The notes beneath the pieces are model-generated. The model did not search any database, was not told the origin of the DNA, and saw only the letters and a program-made list of their open reading frames with translations. Below are positions 1 to 33,213 of a stretch of DNA of 33,213 bases, piece after piece (within the stretch, counting starts at the first letter, position 1; every line of letters begins with the position of its first letter). A program made the translations under genes and the position numbers. This DNA is from a virus. Taxonomy: Duplodnaviria > Heunggongvirae > Uroviricota > Caudoviricetes. The stretch lies in the IMG/VR virus record IMGVR_UViG_3300045988_101411. One strand, written 5' to 3'.

Positions 1-105
1 AACCGATCACATACAGCTGCATTTATTAAGGTTATCATCCGTTTCGCTGAAAAACATAACCCATAAAATGCTAGCTGTACCAGGAACCACCTCCTTAGCC
101 TGTGT

Positions 106-133
106 AATCTCCCTTACACGGGCTTATTTTTTA
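106..133. repeat. att core copy (ogr-proximal junction, attR-type)
   Basis: AATCTCCCTTACACGGGCTTATTTTTTA, identical to 32832-32859; matches the P2 att core as I recall it (revcomp AAAAAATAAGCCCGTGTAAGGGAGATT). Confidence 0.9.
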
Positions 134-194
134 CGCGTAATACAATGAAATAAAAGGATTTATTTCTGGTCACGTCCACACATTGACCACATCG

Positions 195-220
195 ACAAAA
201 AAGCCCCTCGACTGAGGGGC
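195..220 (-). terminator. Rho-independent terminator downstream of ogr
   Basis: Stem GCCCCTC (203-209) / GAGGGGC (214-220), 4-nt loop, followed on the minus-strand transcript by a U-run (plus-strand A-run 195-201). Confidence 0.7.
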
Positions 221-233
221 TTCCTGTTTGTAA

Positions 234-452
234 TTACATCCACATAATTTGCTGTCCTGATGGCAACGGGTGCGGCCTTACGGCGTGGACTTCTCCCGGC
301 TTCACGATGTATCGCTGTACCGACTCATAAGTGATGAACGTGGCGCTGCAATTCACGTTCTGGCACTGGTGATAACGCTCTTTTGTCGTGTCAGTGATAT
401 AGCGACTTGTACGCGCATGTGCGGCATGCTGGCATAAAGGACAATGAAACAT
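234..452 (-). CDS. ogr: Ogr late-gene transcriptional activator (C4 zinc finger), 72 aa
   Basis: MFHCPLCQHAAHARTSRYITDTTKERYHQCQNVNCSATF... with CxxC...CxxC; ATG at 450-452 (track ORF is extended to an upstream TTG); position next to D and att as in P2. Confidence 0.9.
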   Translation of the reverse strand: MFHCPLCQHAAHARTSRYITDTTKERYHQCQNVNCSATFITYESVQRYIVKPGEVHAVRPHPLPSGQQIMWM

Positions 453-23575: not shown

Positions 23576-23717
23576 ACACCCCGTCATCACGCCCTCACAC
23601 GCTCGCCACCGCACAAAACATCCCGCAGACACACCAACGCCCCAGCACACAATCTAAACGCCATCACGACGCGCTCAGACGCTGAAAAAATAAAATCAGC
23701 ACCACCGCCAGCGCGCA

Positions 23718-23736
23718 GTGCTTTCCCCGCCTCGCC
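23718..23736. other. cos: cos site (19-nt cohesive-end sequence)
   Basis: GTGCTTTCCCCGCCTCGCC is the reverse complement of GGCGAGGCGGGGAAAGCAC, the P2 cohesive end as I recall it; located between Q and the cargo, as expected. Confidence 0.8.
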
Positions 23737-23873
23737 CGCCCGCTTCACGGGGCAATTTGAATGCAAATGCATTAGCATTCAAAAGCTATCCCCCAAGCAG
23801 CCTGTAAGAGTTTTTACCTCTACTTGTTTTGCATGCAAATTAATGCAATAGCATATACACCTACAGCATCTGA

Positions 23874-25163
23874 CTACTTTGTAAAAAGAGGCCTATATTT
23901 TTCAAACAAGGAGGTTTCGGATGTATTAACATCAGTGGCAGGCTGCATCTCAGCATGTTGCTTTTGTAAACGCTTAAATCTATCAATTGAATCTTTAATT
24001 AACCAAGACATTGACACCATTTCTAAAGGAGTGCGAAGCATCATTTGCCATGACACCCCCCAAATCAATGAGCTACCAAATTCTTTAAATATCATCGAAT
24101 AGTCTTCACCATCGACAAAAACAAGCTCAAACCCTTCATTCAAAGCTATTTGTTTAAAACAATCCAAATCAAGAACACAGAGAATGGTTAACTCCCCATT
24201 TATAAAGTCACACAAATCACGCGCATCATTTATAAGATTAACAAATGGAGTTAAAGGAACCCACAATTGATTATTTTTATATTCATTCAAAAATATAGGT
24301 GCAATTTTCCTCCCTCTAAGATCCAACTGTGATAATGCTATTTCCAGATCACAGCCACGATTAGATACCACATAAAATCCATCTTCTAGCCTTACCCATG
24401 AAATTCCTTTTTTCCTGCATACATTCAGATGCTCATTAAATTCTTTTTTATATGTAACTTCTGAAAAACACAGTTCTTTCCTTAACACTAATGGCATCCC
24501 TCTAAAATCTTCAGCTTTATCTTCTGCTAAAAATTCAGCCAGTCTATTAAGGTTATTTTTTTGACGTTCAACACGATCATTTTTATTTTGACTTGATTTC
24601 ACCTCCACTAGTACTGGTGCACCTTCACCAAGTAAACAAACATCACCATGCCTCATACTCATTGTAATATCATTGAGTAACGTAGGAACACCAGCCTTGC
24701 AGGCCTTCTTCACCAATTCCCATTCTTCTTTTAAGCCATCCTTCCCTCCCATATAGCCTGCTGACTCCTTGGGACTGTAATCCACAACATTATAAAAAAA
24801 ATGCTTAATATCAAACTTATCCAAATACAAAAAAGCAACACTATCACCAAACATTTTGAAGATATATATTTTAAATTTCACATCATCAATAACCTGCTCA
24901 ACACTCTTAATATTTTCCTTAATAAGTTTAGATTGTTCTTTTTTTAAACCACCTTTTCTTTTTGTTGCCTTTAGTTCCCCTAAGAAAGACTTTAATCCTT
25001 TGATCATCCTTTCACTTCTAATTATATTCCTTATTATTTTGAACTGAAACGACAACAACAAATCTGTATTTTTTAGGTTTCCCTCTAATTTTACCAGGTC
25101 TTTTTTCAAATCAAACACTACCGAGTCATGCAATTTTCGACTCAATTCAGTCTTAAACTTCAT
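23874..25163 (-). CDS. Cargo gene 2 of the tin/old-hotspot cassette: 429-aa protein with PD-(D/E)xK-like nuclease signature; function unknown
   Basis: ATG 25161-25163 with GAGGGA Shine-Dalgarno; EEWELVKK (acidic helix) then RHGDVCLLGEGAPVLVEVKSS (D174, E187-x-K189; motif encoded at 24597-24644, verified by manual translation); no Walker A P-loop; strongly AT-rich. Confidence 0.85.
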   Translation of the reverse strand: MKFKTELSRKLHDSVVFDLKKDLVKLEGNLKNTDLLLSFQFKIIRNIIRSERMIKGLKSFLGELKATKRKGGLKKEQSKLIKENIKSVEQVIDDVKFKIYIFKMFGDSVAFLYLDKFDIKHFFYNVVDYSPKESAGYMGGKDGLKEEWELVKKACKAGVPTLLNDITMSMRHGDVCLLGEGAPVLVEVKSSQNKNDRVERQKNNLNRLAEFLAEDKAEDFRGMPLVLRKELCFSEVTYKKEFNEHLNVCRKKGISWVRLEDGFYVVSNRGCDLEIALSQLDLRGRKIAPIFLNEYKNNQLWVPLTPFVNLINDARDLCDFINGELTILCVLDLDCFKQIALNEGFELVFVDGEDYSMIFKEFGSSLIWGVSWQMMLRTPLEMVSMSWLIKDSIDRFKRLQKQHAEMQPATDVNTSETSLFEKYRPLFTK

Positions 25164-25275
25164 AGTTCCCTCAATAAAAGCAACTTACAGTCAAGGTAAT
25201 TACTCCTGTAGTGGAACAGACTATTGCAGTCTCGCTCCACCACTAGTATAACAAGTGTCAATACGGCATCAACGA

Positions 25276-26007
25276 TTAGTTATCTAATACTGAAACGACT
25301 TCGCCCGTTCGGATGTCGACACGCGCAGCAATAGTCTGTTTAACTACTCCTCCATAAGCATTAGTGCCACGAAATGTGGTTTTCACAATGGCGTGCGGGT
25401 CTTTATTCAAAACCAAATGATATACCGTTGACACATGTTTATAAGATGAATCATCGTTCATATTATCTTTAATTAGTTTTTCCAATGGACGATAAGAACC
25501 ATCCCAACCACTAAAATTGCTCTGAAATGTATCAAGATTGATTTTATTGTTTAGTGAATTCGGGTCATTTTCATAATCATTAAAGCACCACCCAAGAACA
25601 TCACCGAGTTTCAACTCATCATCTTTGGTAAATGTATACTCACTCATGCAGGCATAAAATGCATCTGATGCGGTGACTGGCACTTTCTTAAAGTTAATGT
25701 AACTATTCACAATATCGTGTCGAGTCTTCTTTGGCTCGTTCCGATATTCCTTGAGTGTTTTTTCAGTATATTCGAATGTTTTTTGAGCCTGGTGTTCTGC
25801 TACGGTTGCTGTTTCAGTTTTAGCAACTGGCTGGCTTTTTTCTGTTGGGTAGAGTATTGAACCAATTATGCTCAATGCAAAACCACCTCCGAGATAAACC
25901 GCACTTGCACGTTTACGGTTTGGCATCCGCACCAGTGATGGCTTGATTAACCCGATGAAAAAAGCAACGAAAAAAGCGAGTGATAGAAAAGCGATTACAA
26001 TATCCAT
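25276..26007 (-). CDS. Cargo gene 1 of the tin/old-hotspot cassette: membrane protein with two N-terminal TM helices and a soluble C-terminal domain, about 243 aa; function unknown
   Basis: ATG 26005-26007 with AGGA Shine-Dalgarno (track ORF starts at an upstream GTG 26031); hydrophobic segments IVIAFLSLAFFVAFFIGLI and AVYLGGGFALSIIGSILY; co-oriented with the downstream 429-aa gene; AT-rich. Confidence 0.8.
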   Translation of the reverse strand: MDIVIAFLSLAFFVAFFIGLIKPSLVRMPNRKRASAVYLGGGFALSIIGSILYPTEKSQPVAKTETATVAEHQAQKTFEYTEKTLKEYRNEPKKTRHDIVNSYINFKKVPVTASDAFYACMSEYTFTKDDELKLGDVLGWCFNDYENDPNSLNNKINLDTFQSNFSGWDGSYRPLEKLIKDNMNDDSSYKHVSTVYHLVLNKDPHAIVKTTFRGTNAYGGVVKQTIAARVDIRTGEVVSVLDN

Positions 26008-26236
26008 AGCTATCCTTTTTGCATCATCCACATAAAAAATCGACCTTATGTTAGCAACAGGAAGCTTACTTTTGAATATTTGTAAGTTGTTAGCTTTAGC
26101 TCTCCGAGCTAACTCCTTTCAACCGTCAAAAACCAGCACCAACGCAGTAAAAATATGACTGTCAACTAACGCCTCGCTTCGCTCGTTGTTCAACCCCGCC
26201 AGCCCTGAAAACAAGTTTCACGACTGGCGGCGTTCT

Positions 26237-26443
26237 CTATCGTCTGCGTGGTGGTGGCGTAACTCTTGATTGACCGATATGGTTAAACCGCCCGTAATTA
26301 TCCCGGACTATTTCGGCACACCCGACTAGCTCATCTGGCGTCAGATTTTCGTTGACCATAATCCGCTGTAAACGCTGAACAATAGCCATCAGCTTGATAT
26401 TTTTAGTTTTATGGTGCGGTATCTCGCCTGGTATTCTGTGCAT
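26237..26443 (-). CDS. Small hypothetical protein (about 68 aa), translationally coupled to the upstream ASCH gene
   Basis: ATG overlaps the ASCH stop (TAATG at 26441-26445); no recognisable motif. Confidence 0.5.
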   Translation of the reverse strand: MHRIPGEIPHHKTKNIKLMAIVQRLQRIMVNENLTPDELVGCAEIVRDNYGRFNHIGQSRVTPPPRRR

Positions 26444-26895
26444 TATCCAAGCCACCCGTTTTGCTGTGCACGCTCCATCTGTTCATCTGAATAGTTCCAT
26501 GCTTCATCCGTGGCAACCATTGCACCGCCAGACATCCCCGTCTCTGGTTCATACATAACAGCAAGGCCGAGCTGATGCATAATTTCATGATTAATTCTGA
26601 ATACCAGACCACGCTCACTAAGTTCTTTCCAGTTCACAATCTCATATGCACCTGTATTAAGCAGCTCAATACTTAGCAAGACATAATCTTCCAGCCAGTC
26701 TGACAGGTCAGTAACATCTGTTATCCGGGCTTCAACCTTTCGCCCCGTATACACACCCTGCCCCCATTCATGCAAAATCAACGTGTCCCCGCGCTCATAA
26801 TTACGGTCATTTTTCCGAAACTCTGCGCGTTTCTTTCCTTCCAGCACAAGGTCGAAATATTTTGCGTGCAGCTTTACCTCGTGAATTTTTGCCAT
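26443..26895 (-). CDS. ASCH-domain protein (GxKxxExR motif) with a C-terminal HExxH motif, about 150 aa
   Basis: LEGKKRAEFR matches the ASCH hallmark GxKxxExR; NHEIMH contains HExxH; start ATG overlaps the A stop (TGATG) with GGAG Shine-Dalgarno. Confidence 0.75.
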   Translation of the reverse strand: MAKIHEVKLHAKYFDLVLEGKKRAEFRKNDRNYERGDTLILHEWGQGVYTGRKVEARITDVTDLSDWLEDYVLLSIELLNTGAYEIVNWKELSERGLVFRINHEIMHQLGLAVMYEPETGMSGGAMVATDEAWNYSDEQMERAQQNGWLG

Positions 26896-29180
26896 CATGT
26901 CCACTCCATTACTGTTGAAAATCCCGGCCATTCATCAGCGACCGGATACGTGAATTTTTTCCCGTCATAATTTACGGTTGCCCCACGCGCCAGCGCCTCA
27001 AGCTCCCATCGCTGCGGCCTGATACTATTCTGAGCAAGGTCAACGCGGATACGGGTAATTTGCATTCTTTCCGACCGGGTCAGTCTGGCCGATGGTGCAA
27101 TTTCATGTGGTTTTAACGGGCTTCCGTTTCTTTGCTGACGGTTTGGCGTTCTCAGGTCGTGTTTTAATGCGCCCCTGAGCGCCCTCACGACCTCCGGTTC
27201 ATTCCATTCAATAACACCGTTATCAACCAGATTAAGCACTGCTGCGGCGTGCTCAGAAGGTGTGGGAGCCGGTAACGAAGCATCACCACCAGTGAGCTTT
27301 CCACAGTTATTGACAGGACTCCGAGGCGCGGCGATGCCGCTTTTTAAAGTCAAAGGCTCAACGACCGGCACTTTCGGAACAATGCGCCAGTCCGTCGTTC
27401 TGGTGATATGAATATGACGCGCGCCGAGATGCGGCGCGTAAATGCCGACCACTCTCTCGACTTCTTCCTCATACTCGTTAACGTCATCCGACGGGCTACG
27501 GGCGACCCTGACAGTCTGACAATCGCGCGGGACATTTGCCCCACCCTGCGCGCTGATATACAGCGCAAAATCGCCACTGTCTGCGGCAGCGCGTGCAGCC
27601 TCGACGCGTTCGTCAAACTCATCAGCAATGCTGACGCCGCGAGGCAATTTGCGTAGTTCACGGTAAGCCCCCATTGTCGGCAGGCCAACCGTTTTAAATT
27701 GCGGAATGCGCCACGTTGACGCCCATGCGGTAACAGCCGCGGCAGTGTCTTTCAGCGGCCTGCCGGTATCGTTATCGAGCTGACCATCCAGTGCATAGCC
27801 GTCGATGTTTTTTGAAATGTATTTCGCGATATATCCCGCAGCACCGCCCCGGTTAAGGTGTTTTGCCTGAAAACGGTTTCGCGCAGCTCCTCTTTCGTCT
27901 CCATCCTCTTTGAGCGCGTAGCGACGCATGATTTCGATAATCTGGTTACGCTGGCGTGGATTACAAAAAAGCATCATATGCCAGTGCGGCGTTCCGTCGT
28001 GGTGTGGCTCGACGACACGCAAACCGTAGACCTGTAAATCATTATCCTTGAATGCCGTGCGCATCAGGCTCCAGATGCGGCAGAGATAACGCTGCGCATC
28101 CTTTGGATTAAATGCCTCATCGTTCCAGCCGTGATTAAGCTGAACGGTTTTACTTTCGCCTTTTCTGACCTGACGTGTCGGGTGATACTTTGACGGCGCG
28201 GTCAGCGTGATAAACATCCCCACATCACCCTCTGCGGCGGCGTAACGCTCAATACCGGCAATGGTGTTCATCAGCTCCATCCGGCGAATTTCAGGATTAG
28301 AAATACTGCCCATCACCTTACTGATAAGGTCGATACGCTCGCCGGTTTCCCTGTTTTCAAGGTCACACGATTTAAGAAATTCCAGATTTGCCTGGCGGCG
28401 CGCACGCACATCACGAATGGCGTGTTTACTGGCATAAGGAGAACGGTCTTTATTGACCTCCCCGACAGCTATCAGTAACGCTTCATGCCAGCGCATACGC
28501 TGGCCTTTAAGCTGATGAGTCCACCACTCATCGTTAAACAGACGGGCAATTGCAGAATATGCCTGCCTCGTGGTCATCTGTCCTTTACGGTATTTTTTCC
28601 AGTAAAGCGGGGAAATATTGAAAGCACGTGCAGCGCCAGCAACATGACCATAGAGGTGAGCCTGCGCCTCATCCGTAAACAGCGATTCTTTCTCGCCATG
28701 CGCATCCACCCAGGCATCGCAGAGTTCCTCATACATCATGAAAAGCTGTGATGAGATACGGGCGGCAAACTTTTTCAGCTCCTTGTCATTCATCCCCGGC
28801 AGGCGCGCATACTGGTCGCGCTCTGCCAGAAACAGCAACGACGCGTCGGTGTTCATTTCATGGCGCTGATTCACGCGCTCAATGCGCGGCCATAAACGAC
28901 GCTGAAAAGTGGATGTGAGGAAATAAAACCCGTGTACCGGGCTTTTATTGCGCCGGATGTAGTCATAGCGTGAAGTAAACAGCGAGCGCAAAAAGTAAGG
29001 CAGGCGGTTAATCGTGGATAAAACACCTTGCACCTGACGCATCTCATCACGTGTAAGGGGTCTTTCGCGCCCGACAGCCTCGCGTGGCGCGTTCCATGCA
29101 TAAGCACCGGCAAACGTCTTACCGGTGCCTGCGGCAAATGCTGACGGAGGGACAAAACGCCCGGAGGCTTTAACGGCCAT
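26895..29180 (-). CDS. A: Replication initiation protein A (rolling-circle nickase), 761 aa
   Basis: Start MAVKASGRFVPP... at ATG 29178-29180 (track ORF extends to a TTG); length matches P2 A; position after orf83. Confidence 0.88.
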   Translation of the reverse strand: MAVKASGRFVPPSAFAAGTGKTFAGAYAWNAPREAVGRERPLTRDEMRQVQGVLSTINRLPYFLRSLFTSRYDYIRRNKSPVHGFYFLTSTFQRRLWPRIERVNQRHEMNTDASLLFLAERDQYARLPGMNDKELKKFAARISSQLFMMYEELCDAWVDAHGEKESLFTDEAQAHLYGHVAGAARAFNISPLYWKKYRKGQMTTRQAYSAIARLFNDEWWTHQLKGQRMRWHEALLIAVGEVNKDRSPYASKHAIRDVRARRQANLEFLKSCDLENRETGERIDLISKVMGSISNPEIRRMELMNTIAGIERYAAAEGDVGMFITLTAPSKYHPTRQVRKGESKTVQLNHGWNDEAFNPKDAQRYLCRIWSLMRTAFKDNDLQVYGLRVVEPHHDGTPHWHMMLFCNPRQRNQIIEIMRRYALKEDGDERGAARNRFQAKHLNRGGAAGYIAKYISKNIDGYALDGQLDNDTGRPLKDTAAAVTAWASTWRIPQFKTVGLPTMGAYRELRKLPRGVSIADEFDERVEAARAAADSGDFALYISAQGGANVPRDCQTVRVARSPSDDVNEYEEEVERVVGIYAPHLGARHIHITRTTDWRIVPKVPVVEPLTLKSGIAAPRSPVNNCGKLTGGDASLPAPTPSEHAAAVLNLVDNGVIEWNEPEVVRALRGALKHDLRTPNRQQRNGSPLKPHEIAPSARLTRSERMQITRIRVDLAQNSIRPQRWELEALARGATVNYDGKKFTYPVADEWPGFSTVMEWT

Positions 29181-31738: not shown

Positions 31739-32752
31739 ATGGCAATCAAAAAACTCGATGATGGTCGATATGAAGTGGACATCCGCCCTACTGGACGTAA
31801 TGGAAAACGCATCCGTAGGAAGTTTGATAAGAAAAGCGAAGCTGTCGCTTTCGAGAAATACACGTTGTACAACCACCACAATAAAGAATGGCTATCAAAA
31901 CCAACAGACAAGCGACGTCTGTCGGAGCTGACACAGATCTGGTGGGATTTAAAGGGTAAACACGAAGAGCATGGGAAATCTAATCTTGGAAAAATTGAAA
32001 TCTTCACAAAAATAACGAATGACCCATGCGCATTTCAAATTACGAAATCGCTTATCAGCCAGTACTGCGCCACCCGAAGAAGTCAGGGTATTAAACCTTC
32101 GAGTATCAATCGTGATTTAACATGTATTAGCGGCATGTTTACAGCCCTGATTGAAGCGGAGTTATTCTTTGGTGAGCACCCTATCAGAGGGACAAAAAGG
32201 CTTAAGGAGGAAAAACCAGACACAGGCTATCTCACGCAGGAAGAAATTGCCTTACTGCTTGCTGCTCTTGACGGCGACAATAAAAAGATTGCGATTCTTT
32301 GCCTGAGTACTGGAGCTCGTTGGGGAGAAGCAGCTCGTTTGAAAGCAGAAAATATCATCCATAACCGCGTCACGTTTGTTAAAACGAAAACAAACAAACC
32401 ACGCACCGTCCCGATCTCAGAGGCTGTTGCCAAAATGATCGCGGATAACAAACGAGGTTTTTTATTCCCTGATGCTGATTACCCTCGCTTCAGACGAACA
32501 ATGAAAGCAATAAAACCGGATTTGCCAATGGGGCAAGCCACACATGCACTAAGGCACAGCTTTGCCACTCATTTCATGATTAATGGAGGAAGTATTATCA
32601 CGCTACAACGGATACTAGGTCACACGCGGATTGAGCAAACTATGGTTTACGCTCATTTTGCTCCAGAGTACCTTCAGGACGCCATTTCTCTTAATCCGCT
32701 GAGAGGTGGTACTGAGGCCGAGAGTGTCCACACAGTGTCCACAGTAGAGTAA
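31739..32752 (+). CDS. int: Tyrosine integrase, 337 aa
   Basis: Catalytic-domain residues R...HxLRHxxAT...Y (ALRHSFATHF, MVYAHF); length matches P2 Int; adjacent to att core. Confidence 0.92.
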   Translation: MAIKKLDDGRYEVDIRPTGRNGKRIRRKFDKKSEAVAFEKYTLYNHHNKEWLSKPTDKRRLSELTQIWWDLKGKHEEHGKSNLGKIEIFTKITNDPCAFQITKSLISQYCATRRSQGIKPSSINRDLTCISGMFTALIEAELFFGEHPIRGTKRLKEEKPDTGYLTQEEIALLLAALDGDNKKIAILCLSTGARWGEAARLKAENIIHNRVTFVKTKTNKPRTVPISEAVAKMIADNKRGFLFPDADYPRFRRTMKAIKPDLPMGQATHALRHSFATHFMINGGSIITLQRILGHTRIEQTMVYAHFAPEYLQDAISLNPLRGGTEAESVHTVSTVE

Positions 32753-32831
32753 CGTTTAAGGGCTTTCAGTGGTCATTTATGCCGCTCAAACCCGCATTGT
32801 ACCGTTGAAAGCCCCTACTGATGACACCCTA

Positions 32832-32859
32832 AATCTCCCTTACACGGGCTTATTTTTTA
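32832..32859. repeat. att core copy (int-proximal junction, attL-type)
   Basis: Identical 28-mer to 106-133. Confidence 0.9.
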
Positions 32860-33213
32860 TACATAAACCATAGAGACGGATTGATCCCAGGTGACCGTCT
32901 TCCATTGACCACATCGATAGAATCTCCCTTCATAGCACGATGCCTTTCACGTAACGGCATCGTGCTCGCACAGGTTCCGGTTACGCACAGCCAGAACGCG
33001 CATGTTTGACGCTTACCAAAAAATATTCTCACTCTCCACATTTGAATGTCAGACGAGCGACGCCATGTAATCCTGCACCTTCTGTCTTCAGGTCAACTAT
33101 CTGCATTTTTTTGCCCTGAGTAACACAGAAATGGGCTGCATCATTTTTTACTATATTTTCTGCACCAGATATTCTGCCCCTGGCTAAAGAAGCTTCGGCT
33201 TCGGTGTAGTATT

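Follow-up and report, generated by a model that had tools for sequence, protein, structure and literature searches.

Direct repeats spaced 11 bp apart on both att arms of an integrated P2 prophage match the Int arm-binding sites annotated in P2

Short direct arm repeats that are distinct from the core-type sites are known from lambda Int, HP1, P22, L5 and Tn916, and lambda-type recombinases share a separate N-terminal reader domain as well as sites for bending or directionality factors between arm and core. In lambda the arm sites are P1, P2 and P'1-3. Phage P2 differs from lambda in its arm consensus, in having two sites per arm and in using Cox rather than Xis as excision factor. The arm sites of P2 Int (consensus TGTGGACA, two per arm) were mapped in the early 1990s, and the primary footprinting paper is reportedly that of Yu and Haggard-Ljungquist (1993, J Bacteriol 175:1239-1249). 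According to Nilsson et al. (2011, PMC3448106), dimers of Int contact a core as well as two arm sequences and recognise the latter through the N-terminal domain; the conservation of these sites among P2-like phages was described there too. In the P2 record AF063097 two protein_bind features for Int cover the P' and the P arm (intervals in Table 1) and a third covers the attP core (24356-24383). Separate features are given for Cox (24399-24472), whose array of boxes at attP has been described (PMC3936717), and for IHF (24324-24357); beyond the P arm follow the ogr terminator and then ogr. Phage 186 belongs to the same family and its att site is organised alike: the core is flanked by arm repeats on either side, and IHF and Apl sites lie in between. 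Its motif, however, is unrelated (YAYCGCCAYTY as annotated in its record, tgccGCCActt as the consensus in PMC3448106), the copy number is 3 + 2, and the arm sites lie after an extra ORF and not in the int tail. No GTCCACA pair was found in the int-to-ogr interval of phage 186.

The DNA analysed here is a stretch of 33,213 nucleotides (IMG/VR virus record IMGVR_UViG_3300045988_101411), referred to as the window. An exact 27-nt core duplication, AATCTCCCTTACACGGGCTTATTTTTT, is present near its two ends and nowhere else in the window, and the genome of a P2-group phage fills the interval between the two copies. The left end carries the Ogr zinc-finger gene and gene D, the right end the immunity repressor gene followed by the tyrosine integrase gene int. 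From the int 3' end through the core, DNA identity to bacteriophage P2 (AF063097/NC_001895) is 99.1%, and the remaining phage genome is about 96-97% identical to P2-group Peduoviruses, the accessory region excepted. Outside the duplication lies E. coli chromosome, with cyaR on the left and the yegR side on the right; the yegR side was found in 5418 of 5426 complete E. coli genomes. Since a core duplication encloses a P2-group genome and is itself enclosed by E. coli DNA, the window is, by its sequence, an integrated P2 prophage with both junctions. The cyaR gene ends inside the 27-nt att core, and P2 thus integrates into the cyaR terminator. We presume that this overlap of cyaR and the P2 att core has been noted previously; a literature search for a link between CyaR and the P2 attachment site gave no relevant result. 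With the left core copy in place cyaR stays intact, and P-arm DNA of the phage follows directly downstream.

The accessory cargo (23600-26950), which P2-group phages do not match, presumably occupies the place where P2 carries old and tin. Two minus-strand ORFs in this region, of 429 aa (23874-25163) and 251 aa (25276-26031), had no match in Pfam or PADLOC and are candidates for uncharacterised cargo or defence genes, and a 162-aa ORF (26443-26931) contains DUF3850/ASCH and DUF7415 domains.

The positions of all features relevant to the two junctions are collected in Table 1. The int-side junction comprises the P' pair of repeats, the Cox sites and one core copy, while the ogr-side junction consists of the core, the IHF site and the P pair. 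The P' pair lies 88 bp from the int-side core and the P pair 40 bp from the ogr-side core. The int-side junction is attL in P2 usage, which agrees with the action of Cox at attL (PMC3936717).

Table 1. Features at the two prophage junctions, in window coordinates
Feature	Position	Strand	Remarks
cyaR, host sRNA gene	44-129		Rfam RF00112, 100.7 bits
att core, ogr-side junction	106-132		exact 27-nt duplicate; equals P2 attP core feature; terminator end of cyaR
IHF binding region, core to P arm	131-164		transferred from P2 annotation; 5 differences from reference P2
Int P arm binding region	168-195		transferred from AF063097 24293-24320; offset -1127 from locus L001
P arm-type Int site (predicted), copy 1, CGTCCACA	173-180	+ reading	inside annotated P arm feature
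P arm-type Int site (predicted), copy 2, TGACCACA	184-191	+ reading	11 bp past copy 1; inside annotated P arm
ogr, late-gene activator flanking P arm	234-452	-	terminator ~200-223
int, 337-aa tyrosine integrase	31739-32752	+	protein shares 100% identity with P22H4 Int (P2-group phage)
Int P' arm binding region	32718-32744		transferred from AF063097 24470-24496; offset +31599 from locus L001
P' arm-type Int site (predicted), copy 1, TGTCCACA	32725-32732	+ reading	int codons 329-332; inside annotated P' arm
P' arm-type Int site (predicted), copy 2, TGTCCACA	32736-32743	+ reading	11 bp past copy 1; inside annotated P' arm
Cox (excision/directionality factor) binding region, P' arm to core	32742-32815		transferred from P2 annotation
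att core, int-side junction	32832-32858		exact 27-nt duplicate; equals P2 attP core feature

The original prediction had pointed to a 9-bp sequence occurring twice, 11 bp apart, in the last int codons and to GTCCACA and GACCACA at the same spacing on the other arm, and both pairs are present as described. The 9-mer GTGTCCACA is located at 32724-32732 and 32735-32743, the sole two exact copies in the window, where about 0.28 would be expected; on the ogr-side arm GTCCACA is found at 174-180 and GACCACA at 185-191. Spacing is 11 bp start to start in both pairs and all four copies read on the plus strand. The P' copies occupy int codons 329-335 of 337, within the last nine codons, and are translated in different registers, once as S-V-H-T and once as V-S-T.

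Single copies of the 8-mer TGTCCACA (up to one mismatch) are not enriched, with 22 found in the window and about 25 expected, so that motif counting is uninformative and the signal lies only in pairing and position. A search for same-strand pairs of G[AT]CCACA within 5-40 nt returned these two and no others in the whole 33-kb window. Dinucleotide-preserving shuffles contained at least one pair at 11 bp in 3 of 2000 cases and at least two pairs in none of 2000, figures that are indicative only because the motif was picked after seeing the data; the independent test of conservation described below removes this caveat. One might suppose that the repeats are a by-product of chance or coding, with a small tandem duplication in a dispensable C-terminal tail of Int and a coincidental match on the ogr side. 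Single motif copies do occur at chance frequency, and past 'NPL' the Int tail varies, which would leave room for a neutral duplication. Yet two pairs of the same spacing appeared in none of the shuffles, whereas here they lie on the same strand and both beside the att core, and the 11-bp period is out of frame with the codons. The comparison with related phages, below, weighs still further against such an origin.

The P2 record allowed the repeats to be placed among annotated binding regions. Both window junctions aligned with P2 attP without gaps across the Int, Cox and IHF features, and each of the two transferred arm intervals holds exactly one repeat pair, with all four 8-mers identical to the P2 sequence. 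TGTCCACA on the plus strand corresponds to TGTGGACA on the minus strand, which is the orientation of the P2 record. The minus strand reads TGTGGACA twice on the P' arm and then TGTGGACG and TGTGGTCA on the P arm, in agreement with the published consensus tgTGGaCa; the deviating P-arm copies (CGTCCACA and TGACCACA on the plus strand) differ solely at the lower-case, variable positions. A P2 arm consensus similar to TGTGGACA, given with hesitation in the original prediction, thus proved correct, and the published sites do not map elsewhere, as it had allowed they might: the P and P' arm features of AF063097 coincide with the repeats and cover all four. Binding of the arm sites by Int is taken here from the GenBank features and a secondary paper (PMC3448106).

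Compared with P2 attP (AF063097/NC_001895; PMC3448106), the locus has the same four 8-mers, the same 11-bp spacing and the same distances to the 27-nt core. The neighbours are also the same, namely the Cox sites, the IHF site, the ogr terminator and the int 3' end. It differs in that the attachment site is split into two prophage junctions at the cyaR end, in five substitutions relative to reference P2 in the IHF stretch beside the core, and in its accessory cargo. The repeats themselves are an already known, curated feature of the model phage P2. We are highly confident that in these four repeats the window carries the arm-type sites of Int, the heterobivalent tyrosine recombinase of P2, as had been proposed for both att arms.

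Conceivably, a protein other than Int binds the repeats, be it of the phage or of the host; examples are Cox, IHF and the C repressor. The annotated Cox region abuts the second P' repeat and shares its final two bases, and growth of Cox filaments in the direction of Int's arm and core sites has been proposed (PMC3936717). The P2 record, however, assigns the repeat-bearing intervals to Int and separate ones to Cox and IHF. Moreover, variants of the motif co-vary with the N-terminal domain of Int (GTCTACA with R16W, ATCCACA with 'RYKVD...IQR'), and in phage 186 a different N-domain signature goes together with a different arm consensus. We consider binding by a protein other than Int exceedingly unlikely.

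For arm-type sites of Int, a further question was whether the pairs are kept in relatives with little sequence identity. We scanned the intervals between the int 3' end and ogr from phages with other cores and with an Int that shares only about 50% identity with that of P2; in five divergent lineages each arm carried two repeats at 11-bp spacing. In fiAA91-ss, L-413C and HQ103 the P' pair TGTCCACAtagTGTCCACA lies 15-17 nt past the int stop and the P pair reads TGTCCACAtagCGTCCACA. Phage D8 has the P' pair TGTCCATAatgCGTCCATA across the int stop and a P pair as in P2. For Shae_phiSM and 569R5, both with the P' repeat in the final int codons and therefore coding, the P arm was not available. SEN5 (locus L007, arm pairs at 1688-1706 and about 1883-1901) carries the P' pair TGTCTACAtctTGTCTACA 7 nt past the int stop and the P pair CGTCTACAtttTGACTACA; each of its four copies shows the same C to T change, on the P' as on the P arm (GTCTACA, GACTACA). 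The P' pair is thus coding in some lineages and lies beyond the int coding sequence in others.

A further sample comprised 80 related IMG/VR loci, with counts taken over 67 non-redundant loci. Here the region around the int stop was scanned without reference to the motif, for any 8-mer that recurs with at least 7 of its 8 bases matching, at every spacing from 6 to 16. A repeat at spacing 11 was present at the int 3' end in 55 of the 67 loci, whereas every other spacing accounted for 0-7 loci, and control windows inside int gave a repeat at spacing 11 in only 10 of 268 cases. Twelve of the 67 loci have no spacing-11 repeat around the int stop, and most of these contigs end at or near the stop, which is where a non-coding version of the site would lie. 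In three loci (L027, L035 and L076) downstream sequence is present, yet no clean 11-bp pair was seen; the pair of L076 is spaced 12 bp. The repeats are therefore not confined to P2 itself, contrary to what the original prediction had named as a possible refutation: both the divergent lineages and the larger sample keep them.

These data bear directly on the by-product reading. An 11-bp pair is kept where it is non-coding as well as where it is coding, it recurs far more often than in the control windows, and in SEN5 both arms change together. Nor are the conserved repeats simply inherited as identical sequence, for identity is only about 50% in both the flanking DNA and the Ints. We regard an origin by chance or neutral duplication as practically negligible. 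A purely coding-level cause of the int-end repeat was considered separately and rejected, as copies 11 bp apart fall out of frame and other lineages carry the repeat in non-coding DNA. With a spacing not divisible by 3, the P' copies are read in two registers, so selection on the peptide could not yield the repeat at the DNA level, and the Int tail is variable; selection therefore acts on the DNA and not on the peptide.

The position of the P' pair in P2 also raises the possibility that the sites bind Int and that the pair inside int additionally regulates this gene in cis, for example by hindering the completion of transcription or translation. In P2 the pair lies within the last nine codons, and bound Int would sit on the 3' end of its own gene. 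The overlap with coding sequence is not conserved, however, since the pair lies past the stop codon in L-413C, fiAA91-ss, HQ103 and SEN5, and no data require a second function. Such a double role seems to us very unlikely.

The protein that would read these sites has a corresponding domain structure. Pfam assigns residues 57-156 to Int's core-binding domain and 164-308 to the catalytic domain, and the crystallised P2 Int fragment (5c6k) begins at residue 46; residues 1-45 hence form a separate N-terminal module, which is the published arm-binding domain. These 45 residues are highly conserved, while the tail beyond 'NPL' varies in length and sequence. Variants of the arm motif track changes in the N-terminal domain. 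Ints of the group with ATCCACA carry 'GGRYKVD...IQR' in this domain, and those of the group with GTCTACA (SEN5 and locus L084) carry R10Q and R16W, together with the substitution D8G. Locus L076, in contrast, has R10Q with R16 kept, and keeps the motif GTCCACA/GACCACA. As R10Q without R16W goes together with the P2 motif, residue 16 is a candidate discriminator, and the few lineages compared suggest that this residue (R in P2, W in the SEN5 type) may read position 5 of the arm motif. Positions of the N-terminal domain that discriminate between the P2 and 186 types have already been indicated (PMC3448106). A strict code from N-domain to motif was rejected for the variant GTCCATA: phage D8 has GTCCATA on the P' arm and the P2-like GTCCACA/GACCACA on the P arm, so this motif position is tolerant.

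Taken together with the P2 annotation, the following course of events may be proposed. Before integration, attP consisted of the P' arm with two repeats, the Cox sites, the 27-nt core, the IHF site and the P arm with two repeats, and integration at the 3' end of cyaR split it at the core and left one arm pair at each junction. The N-terminal domain of Int (approximately residues 1-45) would bind each TGTGGACA-like repeat, and the same protomers would bind the core through their core-binding and catalytic domains. The 11-bp spacing would bring two N-terminal domains to almost the same side of the helix. IHF would bend the DNA for integration and Cox would help to shape it for excision; arm-bound protomers could then reach the core to build an intasome or an excisome, with IHF bending or Cox filaments deciding which bridges form between arm and core. 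Binding of IHF between core and P arm and of Cox between P' arm and core is taken from the annotation and from PMC3936717, and the geometry of the arm-core bridges is inferred by analogy with the lambda-type model.

In the stretch of the IHF footprint at 133-147, 5 of 12 bases differ from reference P2 (136, 137, 138, 143 and 145), while the adjoining arm repeats and core are identical. The first bases of this stretch (ACGC.TAA) resemble the host B' flank of an unoccupied site. Because the IHF region differs at these 5 bases, an identical geometry of the accessory factors is not guaranteed. In the Cox region, transferred by homology, 2 bases are substituted relative to P2. Another arm-like word, CATCCACA, is present at 237-244 in the last ogr codons and corresponds to the ATCCACA variant of some relatives. 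It lies 46 bp beyond the P arm and outside the annotated Int footprint; its conservation is explained by its coding for the C-terminus of Ogr (…IMWM*), and it is probably not an Int site.

Sequences similar to the phage arm were also noted in the host DNA. The flank beside the int-side core (32859-32935) contains an exact 15-mer of the P arm, CATTGACCACATCGA, at 32903-32917. Within it an arm repeat, TGACCACA, is kept intact some 48 bp from the attB core, and a degenerate version of the first repeat, CCGTCTTC, stands before the 15-mer. Past CATTGACCACATCGA, after 3 nt, the first 10 nt of the core recur as a third copy, AATCTCCCTT, at 32921-32930 (0.03 expected by chance). The same arrangement is found in the flank of an unoccupied site (L010, 1481-1545). 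On sequence grounds the host flank looks like the scar of an ancient P2-type element, and as the flank from 32884 onward is present in about 5400 of 5426 complete E. coli genomes, the preferred attB of P2 would already carry a fossil arm site. That the flank is such a scar in nearly all E. coli and that binding of the fossil by the N-terminal domain of Int makes attB partly attP-like is a rather unlikely combination, which we put forward as speculation. If Int did bind there through its N-terminal domain, the fossil could aid site preference or alter the geometry of excision on the int side.

For this prophage the value of the arm sites lies in confirmation and in precise coordinates, which fix where the prophage ends, how attL and attR are oriented and which cis elements excision needs. 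Phasing and placement on both sides of the core were sufficient for a reader with only the sequence at hand to recover what are very probably genuine arm-type sites.
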